IMG/VR virus record: IMGVR_UViG_2698536651_000010
Coordinates: 1 to 19,760 of that record
Reading direction: 5' to 3' (one strand)
Length of the DNA: 19,760 nt
Origin: a virus
Taxonomy: Duplodnaviria > Heunggongvirae > Uroviricota > Caudoviricetes
Part shown: in pieces, positions 604 to 17,395 of the stretch
How positions within the stretch are numbered: the stretch's first letter is position 1
Layout of the letters: every line of letters begins with the position of its first letter
Program-made: the position numbers and the translations under genes
Notes under the pieces: model-generated
Seen by the model: only the letters and a program-made list of their open reading frames with translations
What the model was told of the DNA's origin: nothing
Database searches by the model: none

Positions 604-2150
604 CAGGCTGACCTCACGATATAGTTAAATGCAATATTACGCGGACGCGTTTCTGAGGCTGCGGCACCTAAACCAGCCACTGATTGTTTATATGTTTTAA
701 AGGTTCCATAATCCGGTGCTGGTAATCCGGCATCGTTTGTGTTTCCTCTTTTGATAATGTCAGTGCCACTATTTACCCAGCTTTCATCAAAATAGAAATT
801 AATCGTTGCATCAGTCACAATCGTGGATCTTGACGGTAATCCATGAGCATGATCCTCCGTTGCATACCCCTGAATACTTAAAATAGAGCGACCTGTATCA
901 ATCCCCCGTCCGTCATCCCAGCCACGAATAAACTCACCACGTAAATCAGGCAATTTATTTGCCGGATAAGCCTTTGCTAGTTCCGGGTATTCTTCAGCAG
1001 AAAAAGCTGCACCATTGCATTTCAGCCAGCCTGTTGGCGGTGTGGCTGAAGGCCACGGAACAGGGACGCCAACAGGTAATGCAGAGCCTTCTCCCAAACC
1101 AAGGTATGTGAGAAGACCAGCTACATCCTTTCCACTCAAATTGGTAAGCGTATTGTCCAGCGGTTGTTTACCTGACAGCGCATTAAGCATTGTCGTGGCA
1201 AAGTTCGGATCATTCCCCAGCGCCGCTGCCAGTTCGTTCAGCGTATCCAGTGCCGCAGGTGCAGAACCCACCATTGCTGCAATTGCCGATTTCACAAAAG
1301 CGGTAGTGGCAATCTGTGTATTGTTGACCGACTGCGCCGCCGTGGGAGCTGTTGGCGTTCCGGTGAGTGCCGGACTCGACAGCGGCGCTTTTTGTGCCAG
1401 TGCATTGTTAATGGTGGTACTGAATTTCGGATCATTGTTAATGGCTGCGGCTATTTCTTTCAGCGTGTCCAGCGTGGCTGGCGCACCATTAATAAGAGCC
1501 GTCAGAGCCGCCTGAACAAACGCGGCGGTCGCAATCTGCGTGGTGTTATTCCCTGCTGCTGGCGTTGGCGCTTTGGGTGTCCCGGTAAACGTCGGACTTT
1601 CTTTGGGTGCATACTGTGAATGCGGGTCCGGTGCGGCAAGATGTTTTGCCATCTGATCATCCGCGTACACCTTCAGCTCCAGTACCTTATCATCCACATA
1701 CTTGCGGGTTGCCAGCACTACGGCAGGGTCGATTTTCAGGGTGATATTGTCCGTGCTGCTGGTAATCAGCACCATGCGCACGGTCTGGGTACGCCCGCTG
1801 CCTTCAGCCAGTTTCGGCTTATAGCTTTCCGGGCAGTTTCCCACGGCAATCAATGCCCCGGACTCATCAAACAGGCCCACTTCACGTATCCACCAACCGC
1901 CCTCGTTTTCAGGGATCACCTGTTCAGCAATAATCTGGCTACTGTTCTGCGGGTCGATATAAAGCATATTCAACGCAGCCCGGCGTTTCTCATTTACCAG
2001 TGCCGTCTGCTTTGCGTCCGGCGTCGGTAATACTCCGCCGCCATCGCCGACCGCCATATGGGTAATTTTTAGCGGCACACCGAGCGCGGCGGCGCTGGCA
2101 AGTTTCGCCGCGCCAATATCCGTCAGCAGGGTATAAAATTTTGTGCTCAT
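603..2150 (-). CDS. H: Tail fiber protein (P2 gpH-like N-terminus, tandem fibre repeats, tail-collar-type C-terminal domain)
   Basis: 515 aa. N-terminus MSTKFYTLLTDIGAAKLA...MAVGDGGG...AESYKPKLAEGSG resembles the conserved P2 gpH N-terminal domain. Two ~70-aa tandem repeats (TGTPxAPTxA...NNTxIATxAFV...DPxFxTT). C-terminus has a tail-collar-like motif (GWLKCNGAAFSAEEYPELAKAY...LPDLRGEFIRGW). ATGA overlap with gpI upstream. Confidence 0.9.
   Translation of the reverse strand: MSTKFYTLLTDIGAAKLASAAALGVPLKITHMAVGDGGGVLPTPDAKQTALVNEKRRAALNMLYIDPQNSSQIIAEQVIPENEGGWWIREVGLFDESGALIAVGNCPESYKPKLAEGSGRTQTVRMVLITSSTDNITLKIDPAVVLATRKYVDDKVLELKVYADDQMAKHLAAPDPHSQYAPKESPTFTGTPKAPTPAAGNNTTQIATAAFVQAALTALINGAPATLDTLKEIAAAINNDPKFSTTINNALAQKAPLSSPALTGTPTAPTAAQSVNNTQIATTAFVKSAIAAMVGSAPAALDTLNELAAALGNDPNFATTMLNALSGKQPLDNTLTNLSGKDVAGLLTYLGLGEGSALPVGVPVPWPSATPPTGWLKCNGAAFSAEEYPELAKAYPANKLPDLRGEFIRGWDDGRGIDTGRSILSIQGYATEDHAHGLPSRSTIVTDATINFYFDESWVNSGTDIIKRGNTNDAGLPAPDYGTFKTYKQSVAGLGAAASETRPRNIAFNYIVRSA
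1160..1600 (-). repeat. Tandem intragenic direct repeat (~220 bp unit) encoding the tail fibre repeat modules
   Basis: Near-duplicate DNA blocks, e.g. aagttcggatcatt at 1201-1214 and aatttcggatcatt at 1423-1436, followed by similar ...ttcagcgt(a/g)tccag... stretches. They correspond to the two protein repeats in gpH. Confidence 0.7.
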
Positions 2151-2752
2151 GGATTCACTCTCATTGTGTCAATAACATGGACCGCCCCGCCTTCATGCGC
2201 GGTGCCACCGGAAATAATCGTTTCGTTGATATACGGATAGATCGTGATTTCTTCGCCAAGATAGCTGGCGGCTCCCACCCAATGCGGGCCGCTGGTCTGC
2301 AGATTGATGGACATGCCGATCATGTGGCGGCTACATGGTTTGGCATCGCTTATCAGTCGCTCAAGTTCCAGATAGGTATCTTCAGTGATGCCATGGTCCT
2401 GCACTCCGATATCCAGGCGAAACGTGCCCGGTGCCTCTCCGGTCTGCCACCACTCAATAATGCGGATCAGAAAGCCGAACGGCTCCACCACCCGCCGCAC
2501 GGCACTGGTGGTCCCTTTATGCTGATGAATATAAAAAGCATCCTTCACCACCTGGCGCTTGACGCTTTCTGTCCAGCCCTCGTCCCAGCGATCCACAGAG
2601 AACGCCCAGGCGAGATAAGGCAGGAAACTGACCGGACAGGTTGCCGGATTCCACAAGTCACGAAGCGGCACCTGCAGATCAGAAATCCCGCTGCAGGTTT
2701 GCGCCAGTCGGCGCTCCAGTGGTGTTGAACCCGGTGGCAGCAGACTATTCAT
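2147..2752 (-). CDS. I: Baseplate assembly protein gpI
   Basis: 201 aa. MNSLLPPGSTPLE...RDLWNPATCP...LPYLAWAFSVDRWDEGW...GTFRLDIGV...ERLISDAKPCSRH matches the P2 gpI family as I recall it. ATG 2750-2752 preceded by AGGA; stop overlaps the gpH start. Confidence 0.85.
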   Translation of the reverse strand: MNSLLPPGSTPLERRLAQTCSGISDLQVPLRDLWNPATCPVSFLPYLAWAFSVDRWDEGWTESVKRQVVKDAFYIHQHKGTTSAVRRVVEPFGFLIRIIEWWQTGEAPGTFRLDIGVQDHGITEDTYLELERLISDAKPCSRHMIGMSINLQTSGPHWVGAASYLGEEITIYPYINETIISGGTAHEGGAVHVIDTMRVNP

Positions 2753-3422
2753 CCGTTCCTCCGTTGGTTACGCTCCACTGCGTACATGATGCCGCCTGTG
2801 TTTTGTTCAGGACCACATCCGCCAGAGGAGAAGCCAGCTCATCGGACTGCTCTTTTTTGGTAAACAGCGCCGTGACGCGGGCAAACAGGGACGGTTTGTC
2901 GTCCTGGATTTCTTCCAGTTCGATCACCGTTTCCTCTGCAGCGGTAAAGAGATTGGCAGGATTCTGCTTGCGGTTTGCCAGCGGGTTATGGGCTGCACTG
3001 GCGCTGAATGTCAGCATTTCCGTACCCAGACTGGCAGGGTCATCAGTGGCAGCCAGGCCGACCAGGTAGGCTTTGCCCGTATCAGCGAACTTCGGGCTGA
3101 CTTCCATAGAGGTGAATAATTTCTGGCCTTTTTTCACCAGTTCCACCAGGGACTCCGTTGGCTCAACGTCGGCATACAGCGCCATCTTGCCTGCCAGCGG
3201 ACCTGCCGTGATTTCTTCAGCAAACAGCGCCGTCACCTTGCCGTAGCGGTTAAAGGTGCTGTCCGGCAGATAAGACTTGATGTGCTCAAGGTTAATCAGC
3301 GCGGTATACACCGCCGGGTTGTAGCTGGCTGCCATCTGTTCCAGCCATTCACGCTGGATTTCGCGTCCGTCGGTGGTGGCACCTTCCACCCCGATGCGAA
3401 AACGCTTTGCTTTCACTGTCAT
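2745..3422 (-). CDS. O: Capsid scaffolding protein gpO-like, C-terminally truncated and running directly into gpI (likely deletion junction)
   Basis: 225 aa. MTVKAKRFRIGVEGATTDGR...INLEHIKSYLPD...YGKVTALFAEEI...SMEVSPKFADTGKAYLVGLAATDDPASLGTE... resembles P2 gpO (about 284 aa) over roughly the first 190-200 residues. The tail ...SCTQWSVTNGGTDE* has no O-like character, and the stop overlaps the gpI start. Confidence 0.7.
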   Translation of the reverse strand: MTVKAKRFRIGVEGATTDGREIQREWLEQMAASYNPAVYTALINLEHIKSYLPDSTFNRYGKVTALFAEEITAGPLAGKMALYADVEPTESLVELVKKGQKLFTSMEVSPKFADTGKAYLVGLAATDDPASLGTEMLTFSASAAHNPLANRKQNPANLFTAAEETVIELEEIQDDKPSLFARVTALFTKKEQSDELASPLADVVLNKTQAASCTQWSVTNGGTDE

Positions 3423-3500
3423 GAGCCGTGCTCCGTTAGAAAAAACTTACTGGAGCCTTATGGTTGCGGTGATGGGGGCAGTGAAACAATGCGCGGTATT

Positions 3501-3518
3501 TGTACCGACAACCACACA
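3501..3518. promoter_or_regulatory. Candidate Ogr/Delta-type late-promoter activator site (TGT-N12-ACA dyad) in the O-P divergent region
   Basis: TGTACCGACAACCACACA at 3501-3518 fits the TGT-N12-ACA element of P2-family late promoters. Its centre is about 55 bp from a plausible leftward start for gpO. Confidence 0.4.
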
Positions 3519-3564
3519 AACCGCAGGCGGGGAAAGCCTTCATTCAAGGCTGTAGGTTTGTGCC

Positions 3565-5331
3565 ATGAACACCACACTGACACCCGCAGATCTCGATCCC
3601 CGTCGGCAGGCCATGCTGCTGTACTTTCAGGGATACCGCGTAGCCCGCATTGCTGAAATGCTGGGCGAGAAAGTTGCAACCGTTCACAGCTGGAAAAAAC
3701 GCGACAAGTGGGGTGACTATGGGCCGCTGGATCAGATGCAGCTCACCACCGCCGCACGCTACTGCCAGCTCATCATGAAGGAGCACAAAGAAGGGAAAGA
3801 TTTCAAAGAGATTGACCTGCTGGCGCGCCAGTCTGAGCGCCACGCGCGGATCGGCAAGTTTAACAATGGCGGCAACGAATCCGACTTAAACCCTAACGTC
3901 GCCAACCGCAACAAAGGCCCACGCCGTCAGCCGGAAAAGAATGTTTTCACCGATGAGCAGATTGAGAAGCTGGAAGAAATCTTCCATTCCTCCATGTTCA
4001 ACTACCAGCGCCACTGGTGGGAAGCCGGAAAAACCAACCGCATCCGCAACCTGCTGAAGTCACGCCAGATCGGCGCGACCTTTTACTTTGCCCGTGAAGC
4101 CCTGATTGACGCCCTGCTGACCGGACGTAACCAGATTTTCCTTTCCGCCAGCAAGGCACAGGCCCACGTCTTTAAGCAGTACATCATCGACTTCGCCAAA
4201 GAAGTGGAGGTGGAGTTGAAAGGCGATCCGATGGTGCTTCCTAACGGGGCCACGCTTTACTTCCTCGGCACCAATGCCCGCACGGCCCAGAGTTATCACG
4301 GCAACCTGTATCTGGATGAATATTTCTGGATACCGAAATTCCAGGAACTGCGCAAAGTGGCTTCCGGTATGGCTATTCACAAGAAATGGCGACAAACCTA
4401 TTTTTCCACGCCATCCAGCCTGACACACAGTGCTTATCCGTTCTGGTCCGGTGCGCTATTCAACCGTGGGCGCAACAAAGCCGATAAGGTGGACATCGAC
4501 CTGTCCCACAGCAATCTGGCCCCCGGCCTGCTGTGCGCAGACGGGCAATACCGCCAGATTGTCACCGTGGAAGATGCAGTGCGCGGCGGATGTAACCTGT
4601 TCGACCTCGATCAGTTACGCATGGAGTACAGCCCGGACGAATACCAGAACCTGCTGATGTGCGAGTTTGTGGACGATCTCGCGTCTGTGTTCCCACTCAG
4701 CGAGCTGCAGGCGTGCATGGTGGACAGCTGGGAAGTCTGGACCGACTTTCATGCACTGGCACTGCGCCCATTTGGCTGGCGCGAAGTGTGGATCGGTTAT
4801 GACCCGGCGAAAGGTACGCAGAACGGCGACAGTGCCGGATGTGTGGTGGTGGCACCGCCAGCCGTGCCGGGCGGCAAGTTCCGCATTCTTGAGCGTCACC
4901 AGTGGCGCGGGATGGACTTTCGCGCCCAGGCTGACGCCATCAAAAAACTGACCGAACAGTACAACGTGACCTATATCGGCATCGACTCAACCGGCGTTGG
5001 TCACGGAGTTTATGAGAACGTGAAAGCGTTCTTTCCTGCCGTCCGGGAGTTTGTCTACAACCCCAACGTTAAAAACGCCCTGGTACTCAAGGCCTACGAC
5101 ATTATCAGCCACCGCCGTCTGGAGTTTGACGCCGGGCACACCGACATTGCGCAGTCATTCATGGCAATCCGTCGCGCCACCACCGCCAGTGGCAACCGCC
5201 CGACCTATGAAGCCAGCCGCAGCGAAGAAGCCAGCCACGCCGATCTGGCCTGGGCAACGATGCACGCACTGTTTAACGAACCGCTGCAGGGCGAATCCGC
5301 CAATACCAGCAATATTGTGGAGATTTTTTGA
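3565..5331 (+). CDS. P: Terminase ATPase (large) subunit gpP
   Basis: 588 aa. N-terminus MNTTLTPADLDPRRQAMLLYFQGYRVARIAEMLGE... is typical of P2 gpP. Length matches. Stop TGA overlaps the Q start (TGATG). Confidence 0.95.
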   Translation: MNTTLTPADLDPRRQAMLLYFQGYRVARIAEMLGEKVATVHSWKKRDKWGDYGPLDQMQLTTAARYCQLIMKEHKEGKDFKEIDLLARQSERHARIGKFNNGGNESDLNPNVANRNKGPRRQPEKNVFTDEQIEKLEEIFHSSMFNYQRHWWEAGKTNRIRNLLKSRQIGATFYFAREALIDALLTGRNQIFLSASKAQAHVFKQYIIDFAKEVEVELKGDPMVLPNGATLYFLGTNARTAQSYHGNLYLDEYFWIPKFQELRKVASGMAIHKKWRQTYFSTPSSLTHSAYPFWSGALFNRGRNKADKVDIDLSHSNLAPGLLCADGQYRQIVTVEDAVRGGCNLFDLDQLRMEYSPDEYQNLLMCEFVDDLASVFPLSELQACMVDSWEVWTDFHALALRPFGWREVWIGYDPAKGTQNGDSAGCVVVAPPAVPGGKFRILERHQWRGMDFRAQADAIKKLTEQYNVTYIGIDSTGVGHGVYENVKAFFPAVREFVYNPNVKNALVLKAYDIISHRRLEFDAGHTDIAQSFMAIRRATTASGNRPTYEASRSEEASHADLAWATMHALFNEPLQGESANTSNIVEIF

Positions 5332-6359
5332 TGGGAAAGAGTAAGAAGAACCGCGCTGCGGCGACGAAACAGATCCAGCTTAAAAGTCAAACTACAGCCG
5401 AAGCATTCAGCTTCGGCGATCCCGTTCCTGTTCTGGACCGCCGAGAATTACTGGACTATGTGGAATGCGTACAGATGGACCGTTGGTATGAGCCACCAGT
5501 GAGTTTCGACGGGCTGGCGCGCACCTTCCGCGCTGCCGTGCATCACAGTTCCCCGATTGCAGTAAAGTGCAACATTCTGACCAGTACCTATATCCCTCAT
5601 CCGCTGCTCAGCCAACAGGCTTTTTCGCGTTTTGTGCAGGACTATCTGGTATTTGGTAACGCCTATCTGGAGAAACGCACGAACCGCTTCGGTGAAGTTA
5701 TCGCCCTTGAACCTGCGCTGGCAAAATACACCCGACGCGGGTTAGACCTGGATACCTACTGGTTTGTGCAATACGGTATGACACCCCAGCCGTATCAGTT
5801 CACGAAAGGCAGCATTTTTCATCTGATGGAACCGGACATCAACCAGGAGATCTACGGCCTGCCCGGTTATCTTTCTGCCATTCCGTCAGCTCTGCTCAAC
5901 GAGTCCGCCACGCTGTTCCGCCGCAAGTATTACATTAACGGCAGTCATGCTGGCTTCATCATGTACATGACCGATGCCGCGCAGAACCAGGAGGACGTGA
6001 ACAACCTCCGCAATGCGATGAAAAGCGCCAAAGGCCCTGGCAACTTCCGCAACTTGTTTATGTACTCGCCTAACGGCAAAAAGGACGGGCTTCAGATCAT
6101 TCCTCTGTCAGAAGTCGCGGCGAAGGATGAGTTTCTGAATATCAAGAACGTGAGCCGGGATGACATGATGGCGGCGCATCGTGTGCCACCGCAAATGATG
6201 GGGATTATGCCTAATAATGTTGGAGGGTTTGGGGATGTAGAGAAAGCTGCTAATGTTTTTGTGAGGAATGAACTCATCCCTTTACAAAAAAGACTAGAAG
6301 AGCTGAACGAATGGATAAATGAAGAAGTTATTAATTTCGTGAGTTATTCAATTACCTAA
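5331..6359 (+). CDS. Q: Portal protein gpQ
   Basis: About 342 aa from ATG 5331 (the ORF track starts at TTG 5328). Size and position downstream of gpP match the P2 portal; translationally coupled to P. Confidence 0.9.
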   Translation: MGKSKKNRAAATKQIQLKSQTTAEAFSFGDPVPVLDRRELLDYVECVQMDRWYEPPVSFDGLARTFRAAVHHSSPIAVKCNILTSTYIPHPLLSQQAFSRFVQDYLVFGNAYLEKRTNRFGEVIALEPALAKYTRRGLDLDTYWFVQYGMTPQPYQFTKGSIFHLMEPDINQEIYGLPGYLSAIPSALLNESATLFRRKYYINGSHAGFIMYMTDAAQNQEDVNNLRNAMKSAKGPGNFRNLFMYSPNGKKDGLQIIPLSEVAAKDEFLNIKNVSRDDMMAAHRVPPQMMGIMPNNVGGFGDVEKAANVFVRNELIPLQKRLEELNEWINEEVINFVSYSIT

Positions 6360-6364
6360 TAAAC

Positions 6365-6395
6365 AAAAAGGCCATTAAATGGCCTTTTTGTTTTT
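6365..6395. terminator. Bidirectional rho-independent terminator shared by convergent Q and retron RT
   Basis: AAAAAGGCCATTAAATGGCCTTTTTGTTTTT: a GC stem flanked by an A-run and a T-run. It overlaps the last codons of the RT. Confidence 0.7.
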
Positions 6396-7349
6396 AGGAA
6401 AAAGAACACTTAGATCAACCCCATATGTTTCAGACATTTTATTTGAGAAAGTCATCAATTTTCTATAGTTTTTCTTGTCTACACTTTTAACAAACGCAAT
6501 AAGTCCTTTAACATGTTCGAAATCAGAATTTCTTTTTACCGCCAGATAATGGATCTTACTTCTAATTTCGCGATAACGTATTCTGCCAACTCCAACATTA
6601 TCAATAGATAAAACGAGCCCAGTAACCTCCTTCCTTGCTTTGGGGCCATGAATCGCAACTTTATTATAATTAACCTTCAAAGATTCACTTGGTATTATAG
6701 AGCATACAAATGACTTAGCTTTAAGTATTTTTTTTAAAGATTGAGCAGATAAAGTCAAATCATCGGCATATCGAGTAAATACGATCCCCTTACTACCTGC
6801 ATATCCATGTATTCTATAATCTAATTTAGTTAAAACAAGATTCGCAATCTTTGGAGAAGATGGTGCACCTTGAGGTAGCGAACCATTAAATGAACACAAT
6901 CTTGCTAAAGCATTAGAAATAGTAGAGTTATACCCCAGAGAATGAAAAACAGTATAGATTTTCTCTATCAGAATAGTATTAAAACAATCTTCTAAATCAA
7001 TATTTAATACATAGTTAGCTCCTACATGTGGGCTGGCATTATTTAATATTGATTGCCCTTTTTCAAAGCCTTTGGAAAATGGGGATGAATGTAACTTATC
7101 AAGGATGTTTCTTAACACCCAAGCTTGCAATGCCTTCAGCTCACGTGATGGCTGTGAAATGATGCGGGATCTCTTGCCATCTCTTTTTGGCAACGAATAA
7201 ACCTTATAGTATTTGTCAGCACGATAAATGTACAACCGGAGTATGTCTACTGATAAACGCATTTCTCTAGACATATCCTCTAAAGAGGACATAACAGGCA
7301 ATCCAAGATTGCGTAAGCGAAAAACCTGAGATGGTGTTGCGGAAGTCAT
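6375..7349 (-). CDS. Retron-type reverse transcriptase
   Basis: 324 aa. RT motifs: NIDLEDCF (motif A), LPQGAPSSPKIANL (motif B), RYADDLTLS (YADD catalytic motif C). Also the retron-associated NAxxH (NASPH) and VTG (EVTGLVL) motifs. ATG sits 2 nt after the a2 repeat, whose AAGGG acts as the SD. Region is AT-rich. Confidence 0.9.
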   Translation of the reverse strand: MTSATPSQVFRLRNLGLPVMSSLEDMSREMRLSVDILRLYIYRADKYYKVYSLPKRDGKRSRIISQPSRELKALQAWVLRNILDKLHSSPFSKGFEKGQSILNNASPHVGANYVLNIDLEDCFNTILIEKIYTVFHSLGYNSTISNALARLCSFNGSLPQGAPSSPKIANLVLTKLDYRIHGYAGSKGIVFTRYADDLTLSAQSLKKILKAKSFVCSIIPSESLKVNYNKVAIHGPKARKEVTGLVLSIDNVGVGRIRYREIRSKIHYLAVKRNSDFEHVKGLIAFVKSVDKKNYRKLMTFSNKMSETYGVDLSVLFPKNKKAI

Positions 7350-7351
7350 GA

Positions 7352-7510
7352 GCGCACCCTTACGTCATAAAAATCAGATTCCGAAGTGAAAGGAGAACAT
7401 CGGGAGATGTTCTCCTTTCAATGAGGGAACTGGTAAAACTTCAGATTGTATGTAGGACAGCGAAACACTGTCCAGTGAACTTCCGGAGAAGCCACTCGCT
7501 AAGGGTGCGC
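7352..7510 (-). ncRNA. Retron msr-msd non-coding RNA flanked by a1/a2 inverted repeats
   Basis: 11-bp inverted repeats GCGCACCCTTA (7352-7362) and TAAGGGTGCGC (7500-7510). Perfect 15-bp stem with 4-nt loop at 7387-7420 (msd-like hairpin). Short hairpin GGACAG/CTGTCC at 7455-7473 (msr-like). A G follows a1 in the transcript. Confidence 0.8.
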
Positions 7511-8404
7511 AAAACGCATCCTATCATAGTGGAGTATTGTTTTACCACGATTTTCGAAGTTCATCATATCCAGTCGTAGATTGTCCAAAGCCTTTCGATC
7601 AAAATGCTCAAGAACGTATTGCATACCAATTTCTGTAATATGGTATCCTTGAACTGAACGTCTAATTATTGACTCTTTAATCAAGCTTGAAATAACAGAC
7701 TTAACGATAATTTCACAAAGAATAGCATCTTTCTTAGTCACCAAATGTAATAGCTCATATAGAAGTATATTATCTATACCATCCATCAAATATATACACG
7801 GCAGTATAAAACGCCGAGCGTGAAGAATATTATCTATTGAGTGATTAACTGGGTTATTTTTTTTGATGTCATTAATACTTTTTATAATTCTATTATAAAA
7901 AGCTTTACCTGTACTCAAGCTTTCAAGAGTCGACAAATCTCCTCGCAATACTGCACCGCTATTAGCACGCCGAAGCAGTTTTATAGGCCCATAATTAAGA
8001 AAGCTTTTTTTAAGTTTGAATTTGTCATCCTGAAGACATATCATTTTTTTGCACAGTTTTTCATTATTTGAAAATGCGCCCAATTCAGCGAAAGAACCTG
8101 GGCTTTCAGGAATAATAATAATAACATCGACTGAATCAGCTAAAATATTCTCCAAACTTAAAAGACTATGCTGACCTTGTCCATACAAAAGCTCATCAAA
8201 CAACTCCTCAGGATAGAATATTTCTATTTTGGGATGTGTTTCCAACACTCTTTTAACTTTATTTCTACAAAAAAACGGATCATTCAAATCGCCCCCGCAA
8301 AGGAAAACAGTAACTTTATTTTTATTTTTCTGTTGAAAAAGCCGACTTTTAATTAAATTTGCCAGATTTTGCTTCTGCAACTCCGGAATAGTTTTCTTTT
8401 TCAT
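7499..8404 (-). CDS. Putative retron effector: N-terminal NDT-like (nucleoside deoxyribosyltransferase/LOG-like) domain plus C-terminal probable winged-helix DNA-binding domain
   Basis: About 301 aa from ATG 8402-8404 (track ORF starts at GTG 8410). Glycine-rich strand VTVFLCGG and IIIPESPGSFAELGAF resemble the NDT/LOG-type active-site region. Stop TAG (7499-7501) lies inside the a1 repeat. Very AT-rich. Confidence 0.7.
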   Translation of the reverse strand: MKKKTIPELQKQNLANLIKSRLFQQKNKNKVTVFLCGGDLNDPFFCRNKVKRVLETHPKIEIFYPEELFDELLYGQGQHSLLSLENILADSVDVIIIIPESPGSFAELGAFSNNEKLCKKMICLQDDKFKLKKSFLNYGPIKLLRRANSGAVLRGDLSTLESLSTGKAFYNRIIKSINDIKKNNPVNHSIDNILHARRFILPCIYLMDGIDNILLYELLHLVTKKDAILCEIIVKSVISSLIKESIIRRSVQGYHITEIGMQYVLEHFDRKALDNLRLDMMNFENRGKTILHYDRMRFAHP

Positions 8405-8918
8405 ATCCACTTTTCCTCAGAATGATCCCATCTTTTATACAACATTCAAATCTGAGTTTCCACCCGCTGCGCGCGCTCGTATCCCCGCCACGCCTGCCCG
8501 CTTTATGTAGTGGTTTTCATGCACCTGCATGACATAAGCAAAAGCACGCCAGTTCTGGCTGACTTCAGCAAAAACGATCCTCAAACGATCATGCGATCTC
8601 ATGCGTCATAGTCATGCGCTGCCAAGGGAAGCGTAAATCCGTATCTGAATGACTGCTGAAAAGCGAATCATACGGGTTTACAAAGATGAAAGTTCGCTGT
8701 GAGCGAGAAGCGAACCTTGCAACTTTGTTGGCACAGTTTTAACACCAATTTTTTGAGGATAGCTAGAAAACTTGTGGCATAAAGGATCAGTTTCCCGATC
8801 GAACTTTTTATCAAGAAGGGCTCATAGCAATCGCCAGAAGAAGTGATGTTAAAGTATTGAGCTCGGCGTTAAGATTAAATAAATTACAGACTAATCCAAT
8901 GTTTTGTGGAAGGATAAG

Positions 8919-9962
8919 ATGGCAGTCAAGCGCGCATACTACGGTAACGATAGTGACCGAGACTACTTAGAGCGGATATTTCAGTCAGCTAACATTAACT
9001 TTCTCATCGGATCAGGTGCATCCCTCCCAGCGATTAAAGTACTGGGGACAATCGAAACGGATCTTCAGCAGCTTATTAATGATGAACAGGAAGATGAATA
9101 CTTAAGGATGGCAGCTGACTTTTTGTCAGATGTTTGGCTACCTCATGAATGCATGTTGAAGCGCGGCTACGGCACCCCCTTCGCACCTCAGGTGATCACC
9201 GATTTGGAATGTACCCGTGCAAATTATGATGCATTTATGTCTTCACTGGAAAAGATACTGACCCGCCGCCGAACTGGCCTACTTCCGAGGCGTATTAACG
9301 TTTTTACAACTAATTATGATTTATTCATCGAAGAAGCTGCCACACGTAATAACAATATTCTTTTTAATGATGGATTCAATAGAAGAGCAAGTATTTTGGG
9401 AGATGCGGAATTTGATGCGGGTAGCTTTAATCATTCTGTAAGTGCAACCGGAAATCTGTATAATTATAAAGTTGAGCTTCCTACTGTTAACCTTATAAAA
9501 CTTCATGGTTCGCTCTCTTGGCAGCATTCTAAAGGGAAAATCATTTATCGTATTGCAGATATTAAGCCGCTTGACTTTCCCACCCTAGCCGAAATGAAAG
9601 GATGGGTACTTGCTCATGCACTTATTCTTCCACGTAAGGAGAAGTTTAAAGAGACTCTACTACAGAACGTTTATTATGATTTACTGAGAACCTATTCCAA
9701 CGAGCTTGATAAAGAAGCAACTTTACTAATTGTCTTTGGGTTCTCATTTGCTGATGAGCACATTGAAACGATAACTAAAAAAGCCCTGCGCAACGCCACC
9801 CTGAAGCTACTGATCTTTGCTTTCGATGAGGCCAGTGTTAACGGCTTTATGGAGAAATTTCGGGATTACTCAAACGTAGAGATTATTTATCGGCCGGGAA
9901 GAAATGTTGATTTTCCGGTAATGAATAACATTATCACGTGCTATCTGGGAGGCTCGAGATGA
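8919..9962 (+). CDS. SIR2-family (sirtuin-like) NADase of a SIR2-HerA defence pair
   Basis: ATG 8919 with AAGGA SD (track ORF starts at TTG 8904). Motifs FLIGSGAS (NAD-binding glycine loop), VFTTNYD, KLHGS (catalytic His), LIVFGFSFAD. Stop overlaps the HerA start (ATGA). Confidence 0.85.
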   Translation: MAVKRAYYGNDSDRDYLERIFQSANINFLIGSGASLPAIKVLGTIETDLQQLINDEQEDEYLRMAADFLSDVWLPHECMLKRGYGTPFAPQVITDLECTRANYDAFMSSLEKILTRRRTGLLPRRINVFTTNYDLFIEEAATRNNNILFNDGFNRRASILGDAEFDAGSFNHSVSATGNLYNYKVELPTVNLIKLHGSLSWQHSKGKIIYRIADIKPLDFPTLAEMKGWVLAHALILPRKEKFKETLLQNVYYDLLRTYSNELDKEATLLIVFGFSFADEHIETITKKALRNATLKLLIFAFDEASVNGFMEKFRDYSNVEIIYRPGRNVDFPVMNNIITCYLGGSR

Positions 9963-11818
9963 GCAGGCATTTTACTGAAGAGGAAGCGGTGCTCCGTATA
10001 GGCGAAGTCTGTGAGGTTTCTGGACGCGCTGTGACAATTTTGGTCGATAAAAACAAAAATCTCAGTGACTTGTTTTATCAGGGAAAAGTTCTAAGAAATG
10101 TATCAGTGGGTAGCTTCATTGAGATCAAAAAAGGTTTCATGAGCCTGATCGGCAAGGTTGAAGCGGAACGAATCATTGAGGAAAAACATCTCGCTGGGAG
10201 CGGCAGTGATGCCTGGCGATATCGGCGATACCTGACCTCTACTCTTACGGGTTACATTGATCGTACTGGTTGCTTCATTGGTGGTTCGCGTGAACTACCT
10301 CTCATCGGCAATGAAGTCTTCGTGGTAACTGAAGAGATGATACAGACGGTTCATCAGATAGCTGATGCAGACGAAACTGTAATGAGGTTTACTCGTACAG
10401 ATCTTGAAGATATTGAAATTGCACTACCAATCAATGGTCTTATTAATTCCCACATTGCCATTTTCGGTAATACAGGCAGCGGAAAGTCAAATACCCTAGC
10501 CGCGCTATACAAAGCAGGTATTGCCCAAGTTAAACATATTCTCGGCAACCACTTTAGTGAAAGATGCAAATTTATTCTATTCGACTTTAATGGAGAATAT
10601 ACTGCCCCACGCTGTATTACTGACGAGAAGACGGTTTATAATCTCAACACGCACCATGCAAATGGTGACAAACTTCCTCTACCCAGAGAGGTTCTACTTG
10701 AGCATGATATGCTCTCAGTTCTAACCGATGCAACAGACAAAACACAGAAACCTTTCCTGAAGAGAGTTCTTGAGTTTCGCAAGAAAGTGATGACCGCTGA
10801 CAATCCTCTTGAGTTTATGCGCAATATCCTGAAGAAAAAAGTCAGACAAAATCTCTTTAGTAGCGACAAACCCAAATGCGATACTATAAATCAGTTTCTT
10901 AGCCCAATTTTCAAAGATGACCCAGAACTTATATCTGATCTTGAGTATCATTCAACTGCATATAAATGGAAATTGAGGGGTGGTAGTATTTTCAATACAG
11001 AAGCTGATACTGAGCGCTCCTATCTATTCAGTCTTGCAAGCAATTTTTCATTTAAAACTGATATGATTGAAGAACTGTTGGACTTTATGTACTTACAGTT
11101 AATACAGGAATATTTATCTAACAAGTCTAACCCTGAACATATTTCACCAGTTATAAATAGAATGAGTGCTAACCGTAAAGATATAGCCAAAATATTTGAT
11201 ACTTCCGGACAGTCTGATTTTTGGGGTGAACATAATTTCACGGTTGTGAATCTAAATATGGTTAATATAACCATGAAAAAAACGCTTCCTCTTTTGATAG
11301 CCAAGTGGGCTTACAATATGAAGAAAATGTCTACAGAGAAATCTACACTGCACATCATTATAGATGAAGCCCACAATATTTTGTCTAATACTTCTTTTCG
11401 GGAAACGGAAAGTTGGAGAGATTATCGTCTGGAAACTTTTGAGGAAATCATAAAGGAGGGGAGAAAATTTGGAGTTTTTATCACAATTTCCAGTCAACGC
11501 CCTAATGATATATCGTCGACAATCATATCCCAAGCACACAATTATTTTATTCATCGCCTTATTAATCAGAATGATCTGTACGCAATTGAAAAATCAGTAT
11601 CATATATAGATCGACTGACTGAAGAGTCGATTCCAACGCTATCTACAGGAACCTGTATTTTTAGTGGTATCGTCTGCCCCATGCCGCTCAAATTAAGGGT
11701 AGCTGAACTTCCAATTGAAGAAAAACCTAAGAGTAATACTATTTCCTTCAACGATTTAATACCTGAGAGGCTGGGAGAGGATGACCAGAGCGACTACGTA
11801 ATAACCAGCCCTCACTAA
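9959..11818 (+). CDS. HerA-like (FtsK/HerA superfamily) ATPase, partner of SIR2
   Basis: ATG 9959 with GGGAGG SD (track starts at GTG 9938). Walker A GNTGSGKS and Walker B/DEAH-like HIIIDEAH. About 620 aa, typical of HerA partners in SIR2-HerA systems. Confidence 0.85.
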   Translation: MSRHFTEEEAVLRIGEVCEVSGRAVTILVDKNKNLSDLFYQGKVLRNVSVGSFIEIKKGFMSLIGKVEAERIIEEKHLAGSGSDAWRYRRYLTSTLTGYIDRTGCFIGGSRELPLIGNEVFVVTEEMIQTVHQIADADETVMRFTRTDLEDIEIALPINGLINSHIAIFGNTGSGKSNTLAALYKAGIAQVKHILGNHFSERCKFILFDFNGEYTAPRCITDEKTVYNLNTHHANGDKLPLPREVLLEHDMLSVLTDATDKTQKPFLKRVLEFRKKVMTADNPLEFMRNILKKKVRQNLFSSDKPKCDTINQFLSPIFKDDPELISDLEYHSTAYKWKLRGGSIFNTEADTERSYLFSLASNFSFKTDMIEELLDFMYLQLIQEYLSNKSNPEHISPVINRMSANRKDIAKIFDTSGQSDFWGEHNFTVVNLNMVNITMKKTLPLLIAKWAYNMKKMSTEKSTLHIIIDEAHNILSNTSFRETESWRDYRLETFEEIIKEGRKFGVFITISSQRPNDISSTIISQAHNYFIHRLINQNDLYAIEKSVSYIDRLTEESIPTLSTGTCIFSGIVCPMPLKLRVAELPIEEKPKSNTISFNDLIPERLGEDDQSDYVITSPH

Positions 11819-11831
11819 TTAACAAAGTGCT

Positions 11832-11851
11832 GAAGCGGTAACGACCGCTTC
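11832..11851. terminator. Candidate hairpin between convergent HerA and DinI-like genes
   Basis: GAAGCGGT-AACG-ACCGCTTC, an 8-bp perfect stem. No strong U-tract on either side, so terminator function is uncertain. Confidence 0.3.
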
Positions 11852-11962
11852 TAGCACAAAGCGGACGATCACTTATCAAAATGCCCGCCCACCTTACGCC
11901 TCGTTTCACTCGTTGCCCAAACTAGCCCCCATCAGAATGAATCCTCCTGGAGGCAACGTTTC

Positions 11963-12196
11963 TTAATGCAGCCAGCTGTCGTCTTCCCACACTTTCTGCA
12001 TAATTTTCATCACTTGTTTTCTTTCTTCATCCAGTTGCAGTCCGGTCAGTTCCACACCGTTAGAGCTACCTTTGCGGATACGAATTACCGTTTTGGGATA
12101 CAGGGGGCGCAGATTGCGGTAAAGCTCGGATTCAAGGGCGTCCATGGTAGACTGGCTAATCTTCTGCTCTTTATCGATCATTATTTCAATGCGCAT
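11963..12196 (-). CDS. DinI-family protein
   Basis: 77 aa from the internal ATG (MRIEIMIDK...), with GAGGTG SD. Aligns in pattern with E. coli DinI (MRIE..., ...DAL..EL..., ...EERKQ...W...D.W). The track ORF carries an unlikely 24-aa N-terminal extension. Confidence 0.7.
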   Translation of the reverse strand: MRIEIMIDKEQKISQSTMDALESELYRNLRPLYPKTVIRIRKGSSNGVELTGLQLDEERKQVMKIMQKVWEDDSWLH

Positions 12197-12206
12197 AAAA
12201 GTCACC

Positions 12207-12395
12207 TCAGCTGATGATATCCATTGAGCGGTTGTATTCGTGGCTTCTGATTTTTGCCATGAGTTCATCTGTCAGTTCAGAAACCCACTGCAAAGCCAGC
12301 CCCTTCTCTTCATCACTACACTCACTAGCCGCTACAAGCTTAAGAAAAAAATCAATGCGCTGGAGCTTCAAAGACTCCAAAAAATAGTCCTGCAT
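12207..12395 (-). CDS. Small hypothetical protein, first gene of the LexA-controlled operon (possible Tum-like antirepressor module)
   Basis: 62 aa. ATG 12393-12395 preceded by a strong SD (AGGAGG). Lies about 43 bp downstream of a perfect LexA box. The Tum-like role is inferred from position and SOS control only. Confidence 0.5.
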   Translation of the reverse strand: MQDYFLESLKLQRIDFFLKLVAASECSDEEKGLALQWVSELTDELMAKIRSHEYNRSMDIIS

Positions 12396-12437
12396 CTTTC
12401 CTCCTATAACACCAAATCAATACTGTATACATAACCA

Positions 12438-12453
12438 CTGTTTATATTCACAG
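12438..12453. promoter_or_regulatory. LexA (SOS) box
   Basis: CTGTTTATATTCACAG is a perfect CTGT-N8-ACAG palindrome with an AT-rich spacer, just upstream of the small ORF/DinI-like operon on the minus strand. Confidence 0.7.
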
Positions 12454-12468
12454 TATATAATAATCTTA

Positions 12469-12499
12469 CTGATGTAAAACGTTTTTTTACGTTCATCAG
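12469..12499 (-). terminator. Candidate terminator hairpin downstream of repA
   Basis: CTGATG...CATCAG outer stem with inner AACGT/ACGTT pairing and a T/A-rich loop, followed by AT-rich sequence. Imperfect stem. Confidence 0.35.
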
Positions 12500-12547
12500 C
12501 CTGATATGCCTGGTATTATTAAGAGCACGAATTGTTAAACCGCGTAA

Positions 12548-14962
12548 TTAATACAGATCCCGCCACTTATCATCTTCCTGCAAACGCTGGTTCCGATAGA
12601 AGATACGCAGGCCTGCTCCTGACGGAATACTGCCGCCGCGAAGGAGTAAATCGACCTCTTTCTCGCTACTATCAAATCCTCTGGACTTCAGCTCATAGAC
12701 GAGCTGCTGTCGCTGATGGTCTGTAATTCGCTGTTTGTAGTCTTTACGCCGTTTCGGTTTAACCAAGCATAACCTTGCTGCCAGTTCCCGGCGCTCTTTT
12801 TTGCTCATACTGTGCAGGTAATCGTGCAACTCCTTGTCATCCATGCGGGTGATATCCGTTCTGGTATCCCCATCAGCTGATTTGTCTTTCCCTTGTTGAT
12901 TCAAATTTTCAGCAAGGGGACAGTTATTGCCACGAGTCCAAGGGGCGCAAGCGCCCTGGTCGGCTGCCGCCTCCTGAACGTCAACGGCCTTACGAACTAT
13001 TTTCCACTTCACTGCATGAGTGCAGATCTTGCCCTCTGCAATGGGTGACCAGATGCCATAAATACGAATACCGTGATCACCATAGGCGGTCGGCTCTTCG
13101 TTGATTTCATAAGCGGTTCTGATCAAGTGATATTTGCGGGGAACCAGTACGCCGCCCTGCTTCATGATGTAGGTGGCAAAACAACCAGCATCAGCAGCAG
13201 CCAGGATGGCATCAAGGCGCGGGTTATCCAGTACCGGCGCACCTGCTTTTTTGTCACCCTGTTGCCTTGCCGCCTGACCAGCCAGCAATCGCAGTTCACG
13301 GTAAGCCTGACGCCCCGGAATGCCAAAGAAGCGGAATTGCTGAACACGATGCAGAGACGCCCAGGCATTAACGTATTCAGCGTTATCACGCAGGGATTTA
13401 CCCGTTTCCTTACTGATCTCGCCAGCCAGACCACGCCCGTCAATATTCTTACTGATATATTTCGCAATGTAGCTTGTCGGCGTTCCTTTGCGCGGGTTTA
13501 TCAGCTCAGACTTAAAGCGTGGCCCCGTGTTATTGCCCAGCTCCTCGCGGTCTTCACGGATGGCAAACTTACGCAACAATGCAGTAATGGCGCGGCGGTC
13601 TTTTTTGCGCATGAAACACAACAGGTGCCAGTGAACTGTGCCGTCATGATGCGGCTCAGCCACCCGCACGCCATACCAGCGCAACCCGGCTTTGTGCATA
13701 GCCTTACGAAATGCAGCAAACATGCCGACCAGATAATCGCTGCTTTGTCTTACTGTCGCGTTGGTCCAGGTCGGGTTTGGCCTACCGTTATTTAGCGTGG
13801 AATGGAAACGTGACGGACAGGTGATGGTGTAGAAAACGGCGCAGTCACCACGCATTTCCGCGATAAGCTCCAGGCCTTTAACACAGGTCATCATCTCGTT
13901 GCGGCGATGCGCCGGGTTGCTGCTGCTGGCGTTTACCACATCCTCCATGTTCAGCGTGTCGCCGTCTTCGTTCACCAGTTCATGAGAACGGAAAAACTCC
14001 AGCGACTTACGGCGCTGCTCACGTTTATGCATCACGGCTTCATAGCTGACATAGGGAGATGCTTTTTTGCTGACCAGGCAGACAGCACGCAACTGCTCTT
14101 CCCGCCATTCGCAACGCATCTTCCATAATTTCCGATACCACCAGTCGGCGCACAGCATACGCGCCAGCGACCCCGGAATGAGTTCATAGGGCACGGGTTT
14201 ACGGCGGTTTCTTTTCCGGCGGAGTTGCTCAAACGCAGGCGGTATGACATCCAGTCGCAGGGTTTCTGCTGCCACCTTTTCCCATGTCTTGCGGATTTCT
14301 TCTGGCTTAACGTCATCGGTGGCATACAAATCACCACAAGCGGCATCAAGGCACATGCTCATATGCGCAGCGACAAGGGTAGACAGGCGCTTCACCTGAT
14401 CCTGACTCATTTCAGGCAGGATAAGCAGGCCATCCAGCCCTTCATGGCTTGCCATAAAGCGAAAAGAAGTGGATAGCTGACAGTCGCGGACATGCTCCAG
14501 TCGTTCCAGACATGGCTTAATCGTCTCACGCAAATAGCGGGAATAAGCCTTTGGCCTGCCCAGGCTGCTGAAATATTCAATACGTTGCATCAGCGGCTTG
14601 CTGATATGGGAAGGCTGGGCATTGACGTCAGCCAGAATGACCATGTCTGGATTAAAACGCTGCTGCTCATGCGCCAGCTTTGCCCGGCTAATGAGCTTAT
14701 CCTGCTCCATTTCGCGCTGGACAGGATCACGGGATTCATTAAAGAAATAACGCTCCCAGACCTGATCACTCAGTGCCTCGCGGCGCAGTTGTTCCTGCTC
14801 GTTATCGGCAGCGTACAGAGTGATCAGGTTTGAAAGTGCAGAAACCGGCGCAACTTCCGCCGGGTCCTGATAAGGGTTAATAGCCTTTTTCGGGCTGTTC
14901 CATGAGAATGCTGCGGCGACCTCGTTAAAGCCGCTGCAGTTGTTCATATCATCATGGCTCAT
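12548..14962 (-). CDS. A: Replication initiation endonuclease (P2 gpA / 186 RepA family, HUH rolling-circle type)
   Basis: 804 aa. HUH-type motif ...[11 protein letters not shown].... Large size and position at the end of the early operon fit the family. ATGA overlap with dam upstream. Confidence 0.9.
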
Positions 14963-15816
14963 GCACGCACTCCGTATACGGCTGAACTATCCACGCCACG
15001 CGAAGGATCAAATCCCACCCAGCAGCGCGGCCCGGAAACAGCGATGATTTCAGTTGCAGATTTACTCTCACCAGCTGCTACGCCGATGCTGCGTTTTGCC
15101 TTGATGTAGTGGTGAGTAAAATTGCGATACAGCGAACGGATCAGGGATGTGTCACTGTTAGAAACAATGACCGGATGTCCTTCTGATGACCGATGTTCAA
15201 GCACAGATGCCAGGCGATACTGGTCATCTTCAGTGAAGCCATCAGTGTGATAGCCGGAAAACGTACCGTCATAAGGCGGATCGCAATACACAACATCCCC
15301 CGCGTGCAACATCGCCAGCGTTTCATCGAAGCTGGCGCAGATAAACGTTGCCCGCTGGGCTTTCTCTGCAAATGCGCGAATTTCTTTTTCAGGGAAATAC
15401 GGATTTTTATAATTACCGTAGGGAATGTTGAAATGCCCGCTCTTGTTATAGCGACATAACCCACGGTAACCATGTCGATTGAGATACAGGAAATATACCG
15501 CTTTCATGAAATTAGTAATTTCAGTTGAGTAGTTAAACTCCTGCCTTATGTTGTAATAAGCCACCTCCCTGTTTGCTTCCTCAAATAAAACTCTGGCGCG
15601 AGATATAAATAATTCACAATCAGCGGCAACCTTTTTATAGAGGTTGATTAAATCAGGATTAATATCCGCAACCAGATAGCTGGGGTAATCCGTTTCCATC
15701 ATCACTGCACAGGAACCCGCGAAAGGTTCAACCAGTCGCAGGCCAGCAGGAAGGTGTTTTTTCAGTTCTGGCATAATGGCGGTTTTATTTCCCGCCCATT
15801 TCAGGATGGTGCTCAT
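14959..15816 (-). CDS. dam: DNA adenine methyltransferase (Dam-like, N6-adenine)
   Basis: 285 aa. N-terminal SAM-binding motif LKWAGNK and catalytic DPPY. Translationally coupled to both neighbours. Confidence 0.9.
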
Positions 15817-16040
15817 ACAGCACCTCCGTTGTAATGTTTACCTTTCAGCTCTGCGATTTCCTGACAGGTAATGCAAAGCTGCACTCCCGGAATGGCGCGG
15901 CGGCGTGCTGGCGGAATTGGCGCTTCACACTCTATGCAAAGCACGCGAGACACGCCCGGTGTTTTGGCACGGGCAGCACGGATGTGGCGCTGGCGTTCTT
16001 CTTCAACGCGCTGCTGTACGAGATCCATTGCATCAGCCAT
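15813..16040 (-). CDS. DksA/TraR-family C4 zinc-finger protein
   Basis: 75 aa. Cys pairs CIECEAPI...CITCQ with a basic region between them. Stop overlaps the dam start. Confidence 0.75.
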   Translation of the reverse strand: MADAMDLVQQRVEEERQRHIRAARAKTPGVSRVLCIECEAPIPPARRRAIPGVQLCITCQEIAELKGKHYNGGAV

Positions 16041-16273
16041 CAGTGGATCTCCTGCGCTTCGTTCTGGATTGCTTCAGCAGTCACACGCAGCAGTTCTGCC
16101 GCTTCGACGTGGTTTAGTTGGCGGGATGTGATATGACACGCCAGGCTATCAAGGCGAGCTGCCATTGCTTCAGCCCTTGCCCGGCGTTCTTCCAGACGAG
16201 CCTCTGTCAGTAAAATATTAAGCCCTGCATCATCCGGTCCGGTTTTAGTCGTGAGGGTTTCAATATTACGCAT
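16040..16273 (-). CDS. Hypothetical early-operon protein
   Basis: 77 aa from ATG 16271-16273 with AGGAGA SD (track starts at TTG 16279). Stop overlaps the TraR start. No recognisable motif. Confidence 0.55.
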   Translation of the reverse strand: MRNIETLTTKTGPDDAGLNILLTEARLEERRARAEAMAARLDSLACHITSRQLNHVEAAELLRVTAEAIQNEAQEIH

Positions 16274-16340
16274 AATCAATTCTCCTGAATTTAGATAAAG
16301 GGATGCCCGGCGGGTTTACGCCATTAATTTCATTAGTTGG

Positions 16341-16846: not shown

Positions 16847-16853
16847 AAGCACC

Positions 16854-17363: not shown

Positions 17364-17395
17364 GGTCAATGCCTCTGATGTATTTCAGAATCGAA

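Follow-up and report, generated by a model that had tools for sequence, protein, structure and literature searches.

A very probable Fels-2-type cos site between two defence loci in a P2-like prophage remnant

Positions 8469–8619 (minus strand) of the window, by which we mean the whole 19,760-nt stretch of DNA analysed here, are very probably the cos site of a Fels-2-type P2-like (Peduoviridae) prophage, intact in sequence and usable by the remnant that carries it only in trans. The initial annotation had suggested that a GC-rich patch at 8455–8720 might be the packaging site. Three results argue for this: an ungapped alignment with the cos regions of P2, 186 and P4, a syntenic position, and a search of the window for the core 13-mer that found no second cos candidate. 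The site lies between two defence loci, as had been noticed at the outset, and PADLOC identifies these as a type II-A retron and a SIR2–HerA pair. The positions of the nicks, the binding of terminase to the repeated boxes described below, and the current function of the site we infer from sequence comparison.

The cos core and its predicted cohesive end

The central part of the site comprises the following features.

8469 to 8523, minus strand: 55-bp P2-family cos core, made up of TGCATGAAAACCACTACATAAAGCGGGCA, the 19-nt overhang and CGCGCGC (from identity to relatives)
8476 to 8494, minus strand: predicted 19-nt cohesive end GGCGTGGCGGGGATACGAG, the equivalent of cosN (aligned position by position with cosL as annotated in P2 and cos of 186)
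8495/8494 on the minus strand and 8476/8475 on the plus strand: predicted nicks (by homology)

The minus strand of 8482–8494 reads GGCGTGGCGGGGA, and that of the longer interval 8476–8494 reads GGCGTGGCGGGGATACGAG. The 186 record begins GGCGTGGCGGGGAAAGCAT and the P2 record GGCGAGGCGGGGAAAGCAC; these two 19-mers differ from each other at two of their 19 positions, one of which is inside the first 13. Both record starts agree with the sequences given in the initial annotation, where the window matches the first 13 nt of the 186 end. The divergence from 186 beyond nucleotide 13 is also real, and falls at positions 14, 16, 17 and 19 (ATACGAG in the window, AAAGCAT in 186). Compared directly as 19-mers, GGCGTGGCGGGGATACGAG agrees with the 186 overhang at 15/19 positions and with that of P2 at 14/19. 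The exact 13-mer occurs only once in the 19,760 nt, where 0.30 chance matches with up to two mismatches are expected.

The sequence GGCGTGGCGGGGATACGAG fits the family consensus for the G-rich 19-nt cohesive end, GGCGWGGCGGGGAnAnnAn. It is found, 19/19, in 11 phage records, SEN8 and Fels-2 among them, and identically in more than 100 IMG/VR contigs. Its carriers include Fels-2, RE-2010, SopEPhi, SEN8, Cartapus, Yersinia phage MLG42, and several phages of Klebsiella and E. coli. In the SEN8 record it forms the first 19 nt and is annotated ‘putative cos site’ (in Cartapus, as in SEN8, the annotation is ‘putative’, by analogy), and the SEN8 genome paper gives exactly this sequence as cos (PMC5427200). 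Stenotrophomonas phage Smp131 has an ending, ...GAGACGAG, similar to that of the window overhang. Since Smp131 ends alike, and since GGCGTGGCGGGGATACGAG recurs in SEN8, Fels-2 and others, a Fels-2-type overhang class can be regarded as established. By the same comparison, the six 3' bases of the overhang, those that depart from 186, are the standard variant of this lineage rather than a sign of decay, for the identical 19-mer is present in Fels-2, SopEPhi, RE-2010, SEN8, MLG42 and the >100 contigs.

Alignment to the cos regions of P2, 186 and relatives had been proposed as the check on this reading. The records of P2, 186 and P4 were closed end to end into circular junctions, and we aligned the minus strand of the window to these, anchored on the nick. 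The reference ends of P2 and 186 are physically determined; the anchor for P4 is its record ends. The window aligns to all three junctions without gaps and is homologous on both sides of the predicted nick, its row reading TCATGCAGGTGCATGAAAACCACTACATAAAGCGGGCA / GGCGTGGCGGGGATACGAG / CGCGCGC and that of 186 reading TCATGCAACTGCATTAAAACCGACCCATAAAGTGGGCA / GGCGTGGCGGGGAAAGCAT / TGCGCGC. The alignment therefore continues well past the G-rich core, and no other candidate for cos turned up in the window. Held in common with P2, 186 and P4, with no insertions or deletions, are GCAT at -123, -110, -100 and -28, AAAGCGGGC just before the nick, and a G-rich 19-nt 5' overhang followed by GCGCGC. Over the 55-bp core (8469–8523), ungapped identity is 55/55 to Fels-2, 54/55 to SEN8 and to MLG42 (both isolated as phage), 46/55 to ENT90, 44/55 to 186, 43/55 to P4 and 42/55 to P2. 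This core is the one attributed to Ziermann & Calendar 1990 in passages of PMC5694545, PMC9594776 and PMC3931495.

The window holds a P2-like prophage that runs in reverse relative to the P2 map. Assignment of its genes places the following around the site.

2745 to 3422, minus strand: truncated scaffold gene O
3565 to 5331, plus strand: large terminase gene P
5328 to 6359, plus strand: portal gene Q
11963 to 12268, minus strand: DinI/tum
12548 to 14962, minus strand: replication protein gpA

The order is gpA, DinI, cargo, cos, cargo, Q and P. Order and polarity are those of P2 and 186, and the G-rich strand of the site reads toward Q as it does in these two phages. In Fels-2, SopEPhi, RE-2010 and SEN8 (genus Felsduovirus and relatives), cos occupies the same position between DinI and Q, with the same 19-mer, a core that is identical or one base off, and the same layout of GCAT boxes, GATC pair and hairpin. 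The window differs from these in two mismatches in the hairpin, in which cargo lies on either side, and in belonging to a remnant prophage. Of 5426 complete E. coli genomes, 1277 contain the block. Some phage records show small ‘hypothetical proteins’ here; since these columns coincide with cos as physically mapped in P2 and 186, we rejected the idea that the block encodes such proteins. A scan of 6200–9100 against Rfam (E<=1) returned sub-threshold noise only, and no match in the cos block.

The conserved module and its repeated boxes

The conserved DNA extends well beyond the core, and contains several kinds of repeats.

8469 to 8619, minus strand: whole conserved cos module, 151 bp, -125 to +26 from the nick (column information, blastn, genomes with variant cargo)
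8517 to 8532, unstranded: perfect palindrome TCATGCA-GG-TGCATGA, consisting of a fourth GCAT box at -28 and an inverted copy at -37 (repeat search)
8541 to 8566, minus strand: GC-rich hairpin followed by a T-run, terminator-like, directed toward cos and weakened here (terminator-like match 8563 to 8548, minus)
8572 to 8598, unstranded (repeat on minus): direct repeat of GATCGTTT, two copies, with three GATC at 8576, 8587 and 8595; specific to the Fels-2-type lineage (repeat search)
8589 to 8618, minus strand: three direct GCAT boxes (CGCATGA on minus, TCATGCG on plus), the proposed cosB-like array for recognition by terminase (conservation)
8620 to 8903, unstranded: non-conserved spacer from cos to the SIR2 gene, outside cos (lies beyond the conserved block)

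Three kinds of evidence define the edges of the module. A scan of IMG/VR for the overhang plus CGCGCGC yielded 116 modules with full flanks, representing 114 distinct 290-mers and 93 distinct upstream halves. Among the 114 distinct sequences, column information is close to zero upstream, jumps at -125, remains high to the nick, and returns to about zero just after +26; positions 0 to +25 are fixed by the search pattern, and both edges and the upstream 125 bp are free of it. The blastn block against phages spans 8457–8620. It comprises ~150 bp at 88–93% identity to many phages, and the 151-bp module has 88–93% identity to Fels-2-type records. Finally, in E. coli genomes whose cargo differs, the sequence shared with the window begins at 8468/8469 if they carry SIR2–HerA, and reaches to ~8621 if they carry the retron. 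The junction on the portal side falls exactly past CGCGCGC.

The patch is richer in GC than the cargo around it, as first remarked: 51.1% over 8455–8720 (53.6% in the 151-bp module), versus 35.3% in the retron cargo and 40.2% in SIR2–HerA. P and Q together have 54.3%, and because the patch equals this backbone its composition is that of the phage backbone rather than an unusual enrichment.

Three CATGCG repeats at spacings of 10–13 bp had also been noted near the core. The TCATGCG copies occupy 8589–8595, 8599–8605 and 8612–8618 on the plus strand, spaced by 10 and 13 bp, and correspond to the first three GCAT boxes, at -123, -110 and -100 from the nick. Among the 93 distinct Fels-2-type modules, GCATG is kept at -123 in 84, at -110 in 89, at -100 in 87 and at -28 in 92, and the inverted CATGC at -37 in 85. 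The first box is GCGCATG in the window, where the majority have GTGCATG. We carried out a second scan for other overhang classes: the P2/P4-type, the 186-type, and three ATAGCA-type classes. In each of these five classes, GCAT reaches 30% of the sequences or more at -123, -110, -100 and -28 and nowhere else, and in the four largest other classes, summed, GCAT occurs at -28 in 81/82 sequences. Upstream of the core in these classes, conservation is found mainly in the GCAT boxes and in a CGCCAG..CTGGCG hairpin. Individually, P2, P4, 186, ENT90 and pro483 carry GCAT at the same positions. Throughout the sequences compared, then, the GCAT boxes are a family-wide, position-fixed feature, present at constant distances from the nick in six overhang classes that include the satellite P4, and the window has all four. 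P4 is packaged by the P2 terminase (PMC9122126). The spacings of 13 and 10 bp, and then of ~72 bp to the box at -28, are roughly whole turns of the helix. The three TCATGCG repeats are the local form of these boxes, which probably make up a terminase recognition array.

Might a G-rich 13-mer and some short repeats have come together by accident in an intergenic region? In favour of this, TCATGCG shows no enrichment across the window (6 copies versus 4.1 expected), but three copies on one strand within 30 bp are expected only ~6e-5 times, the similarity to many phages runs for ~150 bp, and the positions are conserved across hundreds of elements. Chance resemblance has next to no probability, and we consider it already refuted.

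A cos site of this kind would operate as follows in an intact relative. A P2-type terminase (gpM plus gpP), together with proheads, would recognize replicated phage DNA, most likely by docking on the phased GCAT array, that is, on the direct boxes at -123, -110 and -100 and the palindromic pair at -37/-28. It would then nick twice, 19 nt apart, leaving as 5' overhangs GGCGTGGCGGGGATACGAG (minus strand, 8494 to 8476) and its complement. Selection for packaging would act on the 151-bp module only, and DNA could be exchanged freely from 7 nt past the overhang on the portal side and from beyond -125 on the replication side. The presence of a retron on one side and SIR2–HerA on the other would follow, because the DNA directly outside the module is freely exchanged. 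In outline this resembles the cos of lambda (cosQ–cosN–cosB), which likewise combines a nicking site, 5' cohesive ends and a helically phased array of repeats; the GCAT array may be considered analogous to the repeated sites for small terminase in lambda cosB. There is no sequence homology between the two, however, the lambda overhang is 12 nt rather than the predicted 19, and in the window every repeat is on the side destined to be the right end of the genome.

The hairpin lies at about -72 to -45. The window copy has two internal mismatches, and its predicted dG is -12.4 kcal/mol versus -18.5 to -24.3 in Fels-2, SEN8 and MLG42. P4, ENT90 and 186 have hairpins of other sequence in the same place, and P2 has none predicted there, so that the hairpin is helpful at most and not essential across the family. 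At least 12 other E. coli prophages have the window variant, as does one extrachromosomal 29.5-kb P2-like element. In Fels-2-type phages the hairpin resembles an intrinsic terminator that would stop transcripts arriving from the DinI side.

Between the GCAT boxes and the hairpin lies a pair of GATC sites, at -96 in 86 and at -85 in 84 of the 93 distinct Fels-2-type modules, and this pair survives in a variant in which the neighbouring bases have changed. It is absent from P2, 186 and P4, and nearly so from P2-type and 186-type modules in general. Fels-2-type phages usually encode their own Dam methylase beside gpA, whereas P2-type and 186-type phages have neither the sites nor the enzyme (the raw table of Dam against GATC reads 45, 10, 6, 44). 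Inside the ATAGCAT overhang class, no association between Dam and GATC was found. It is conceivable, though we judge it unlikely, that the use of cos is coupled to adenine methylation in the Fels-2-type lineage, as at the pac site of phage P1; the correlation is confounded with lineage.

Beyond the module, the spacer contains the inverted repeat that had been described at about 8692–8715. It is present as described (GTTCGCT at 8692–8698, AGCGAAC at 8709–8715), and extends to 10-nt arms, 8689–8698 and 8709–8718, that are 90% complementary. It is not part of cos, since it falls outside 8469–8619, and we rejected it as a cos element: the sequence from 8469 to 8712 is common (~96%) only to one E. 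coli sub-lineage, and that from 8468 to 9000 is found at 100% only in SIR2–HerA carriers, making the repeat lineage- or cargo-specific. A second inverted repeat occurs in the spacer at 8633–8644/8670–8681. Together the two fold better than shuffled sequences (z -2.7 to -4.5), with no adjacent T-run; the terminator scan scores the 8692–8715 repeat as a weak 5-bp stem lacking a proper T-run. The repeat at 8692–8715 may have a regulatory role in expression of the SIR2 operon.

Cargo on both sides of cos

The two defence loci and their components are these.

6375 to 8404, minus strand: retron type II-A cargo, on the portal side of cos (PADLOC)
6375 to 7349, minus strand: retron RT (PADLOC RT_II-A, 4.6e-123)
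~7350 to 7510, minus strand: candidate msr–msd (fold z = -8.4; a1/a2 arms GCGCACCCTTA/TAAGGGTGCGC)
7499 to 8404, minus strand: retron NDT effector, 301 aa (PADLOC NDT_II-A, 2.5e-97)
8919 to 11818, plus strand: SIR2–HerA defence pair, on the gpA/DinI side, transcribed away from cos (PADLOC, Pfam)
8919 to 9962, plus strand: SIR2 (PADLOC, 6.1e-211)
9959 to 11818, plus strand: HerA (PADLOC, 5.9e-267)

RefSeq labels both retron proteins ‘retron St85 family’. The retron side abuts the module at 8468, and the SIR2–HerA side at ~8620. That cargo had been inserted on both sides of cos, as was suspected, is borne out, and the layout proves to be both common and published. Among Fels-2-type IMG/VR elements, the gap from cos to the Q stop is ‘empty’ (156–182 bp, as in P2 and 186) in 12/86 and contains an insert of at least 551 bp in the other 74, while the gap from DinI to cos is ‘empty’ (~80 bp) in 24/79. 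Both gaps exceed 600 bp in 25/55 of the Fels-2-type relatives. In the window they measure 2109 bp (cos–Q side) and 3343 bp (DinI–cos side). The exact combination of retron II-A and SIR2–HerA around cos is rare, occurring in 1 of 5426 complete E. coli genomes. Other elements combine their cargo differently: E189 has the order Q–AIPR–cos–SIR2/HerA, and the O25b element Q–P-loop NTPase–cos–two small genes. From these combinations it follows that the two cargo slots exchange independently. E189, O25b, SEN8 and Fels-2 all differ in cargo and are alike in cos.

A variable defence hotspot between gpA and gpQ, adjoining cos, has been described by Rousset et al. 2022 (PMC9122126), and a gpA–gpQ hotspot next to cos appears also in a 2026 NAR study (PMC13586616). 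Passages of PMC5694545 and PMC7826664 place the retrons Ec67 and Ec86 between cos and the terminator of the portal gene, citing Dodd & Egan 1996, and the toxin gene of phiCTX in the same cos-to-portal slot. The window has the same kind of defence cargo adjoining cos, with a retron in the cos-to-Q slot, its retron being of type II-A (St85 family) instead of Ec67 or Ec86. The prophage that carries Ec67 has a reported backbone of Dam, TraR, CII and CI, and the window prophage is alike in this respect. Where the window has the retron, on the portal side of cos, P2 and 186 have an ‘empty’ gap (~170–180 bp, with the terminator tQ/tW). On the DinI side, P2 carries its own cargo, old and tin, transcribed away from cos in the manner of SIR2–HerA.

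The flanks bear on a different interpretation of the block, that it acts mainly in transcriptional control, as a terminator with divergent promoters, and that packaging specificity resides elsewhere. Both defence operons run away from the block, the terminator-like hairpin and T-run lie within it and point toward cos, and the old–tin transcript of P2 begins ~150 bp from cosR. Against this, the block is retained irrespective of which cargo flanks it and how that cargo is oriented. It aligns collinearly with the P2 and 186 ends that were determined physically, it is the sole region common to P2 and its satellite P4 (PMC9122126, PMC9594776), and the promoter scan found no sigma-70-like promoter inside 8469–8619. 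We consider a mainly regulatory role very improbable, and a packaging site to be by far the better account.

A remnant that has kept its cos

E. coli VG888-46E9, the nearest complete genome, carries a gene-complete copy of the same prophage between ybjL and rcdA. Comparison of the window with that copy by blastn reveals a large deletion.

2839 to 2840, unstranded: junction of a 6,650-bp deletion, with baseplate gene J' fused to scaffold gene O' (blastn against the intact VG888-46E9 prophage)

The deletion removed W, V, S, R, lysC, lysB, lysozyme, holin, X, L, M (small terminase) and N (capsid), and its junction has 1–2 bp of microhomology. It occurs in none of the 5426 complete E. coli genomes. 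The same J'–O' fusion ORF is present on contig 248 of Logan ERR2203427, an independent assembly in which positions 1–13422 of the window are matched at 100%, and we therefore rejected the idea that the junction is an artificial splice. On contig 248 the host genes ybjL, ybjM, grxA, nfsA and rimK start ~280 bp beyond the start of the window. Because host genes directly follow the tail-fibre assembly genes, the tail region from FI through D is absent as well. The full morphogenesis set (M and P, Q, O, N, L, lysis, V–W–J–I, FI–FII–E–T–U–D and ogr) is accordingly incomplete here. What the remnant keeps are integrase, immunity and replication genes, Dam, both defence systems, cos, Q and P. The window is a natural prophage remnant of roughly 20 kb.

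With gpM, gpN and the lysis, baseplate and tail genes gone, the remnant cannot package itself. It had been suggested that the prophage might be unable to package if its cos were degenerate; the inability holds, and the cause is the loss of genes rather than decay of the site. Two findings argue directly against a degenerate cos, the match of 55/55 to the Fels-2 core, and the overhang, which is of the normal Fels-2 type. In principle the site might nonetheless be a decaying relic, beyond efficient cleavage or packaging by any terminase. It does sit in a deletion remnant that lacks gpM, gpN and many other genes, with a weakened hairpin and a first box that departs from the majority form. Against this, the gene-complete VG888-46E9 prophage matches positions 8300–9000 at 100%, the four direct GCAT boxes are all in place, as is the inverted copy, the same hairpin variant is found in other prophages and in the extrachromosomal element, and P2 manages with no predicted hairpin at all. 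On balance we regard a dead site as quite unlikely. An intact cos in a defective prophage is the reading we prefer, and this cos could be used only in trans, by way of a co-resident helper of the same specificity. As a monomer, the remnant, at ~20 kb, amounts to roughly 60% of a 33-kb P2-type genome, and as a dimer it exceeds one. That it behaves as a ‘proto-satellite’, mobilized by such a helper, is unlikely.

The site, then, is a known kind of element in a known place. A retron and a SIR2–HerA pair around cos conform to the usual layout of the P2 hotspot, and the overhang that had seemed ‘divergent’ is the normal Fels-2-type variant, so that the consequence of the finding is mainly correct annotation. 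As for the locus, it is a remnant without capsid or small terminase genes that has retained both of its defence systems. For the family as a whole, the module delimited here from the data (-125 to +26) exceeds the often-quoted 55-bp core, and could guide the design of cosmids and transducing particles.

Two deletions and the chromosomal site

Compared with the intact prophage of Escherichia coli VG888-46E9, the window lacks 6,650 bp, corresponding to positions 10766–17415 of the extracted locus that holds that prophage. The genes lost are W, V, S and R, the lysis genes, X, L, the small terminase gene M and the capsid gene N, and their removal has joined baseplate J' to scaffold O' in a single fusion ORF:

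2839–2840, minus strand: deletion junction, within ORF 2745–3422

The deletion is natural. The identical J'–O' junction is present on Logan ERR2203427 contig 248, the source contig that also carries the chromosomal flank, and there were no carriers of the junction among complete RefSeq E. coli genomes. Host genes begin on this contig about 280 bp beyond the start of the window:

contig 248, 13422–20678, past window position 1: ybjL, ybjM, grxA, ybjC, nfsA, rimK, ybjN and potF

Because these genes begin so close to the window start, we conclude that a second deletion took out D and ogr together with the genes for tail sheath, tube and tape measure. What is left is a remnant of about 20 kb, sited between ybjL and rcdA.

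Sequences on either side of cos

On one side of cos lies the retron, with a candidate msr–msd between the NDT effector and the reverse transcriptase. Its a1/a2 arms are long (GCGCACCCTTA and TAAGGGTGCGC), its predicted fold has a minimum free energy of −75.7 kcal/mol (z = −8.4), and no Rfam match was found in this region. A promoter-like site lies just within the 5' a1 arm.

about 7350–7510, minus strand: candidate retron msr–msd
7474–7445, minus strand: promoter-like site

Only 64 bp (8405–8468, minus strand) separate the edge of the cos module from the effector start codon, and therefore any promoter of the effector must adjoin cos, around 8445–8417 (TTGAAT..ATCATT); a consensus promoter scan there reported nothing. 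On the other side, the spacer between cos and SIR2 holds two adjacent imperfect hairpins, both outside the conserved cos module:

8633–8644 / 8670–8681: imperfect hairpin 1
8680–8698 / 8709–8728: imperfect hairpin 2

Related cos regions in other elements

Window 8469–8712 is shared, at about 96% identity, with an extrachromosomal P2-like element of an O25b:H4 strain; the cargo of that element differs. NZ_CP015088.1 (29,509 bp) is the genome of a P2-like phage whose cos belongs to this class. It was submitted as an 'extrachromosomal' replicon in its own right, from an E. coli strain of type O25b:H4, and frameshifts interrupt several genes in it, including terminase P and gpA. The VG888-46E9 chromosome (NZ_CP128581.1) contains a second place matching window 8300–9000, which suggests that this cell also holds another P2-like prophage, or a P4-like satellite, with a related cos. 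In the viral contig IMGVR_UViG_3300011853_000021, which was left out of the statistics, the Fels-2-type overhang sequence occurs twice, about 3.2 kb apart:

3440–3465 and 6704–6729 of that record, opposite orientations: Fels-2-type overhang copies

GATC sites and Dam

The cos module contains three GATC sites in a stretch of 23 bp, and the window also encodes Dam:

8576, 8587 and 8595: GATC sites
14959–15816, minus strand: Dam gene

Among 93 distinct Fels-2-type modules, GATC is kept at −96 in 86 and at −85 in 84; P2-type and 186-type modules almost entirely lack these two sites. Dam is encoded beside gpA in the Fels-2-type lineage as well, an association with the GATC pair that is confounded by lineage. 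It is possible that cos of this lineage is methylation-sensitive, by analogy with the pac site of P1.
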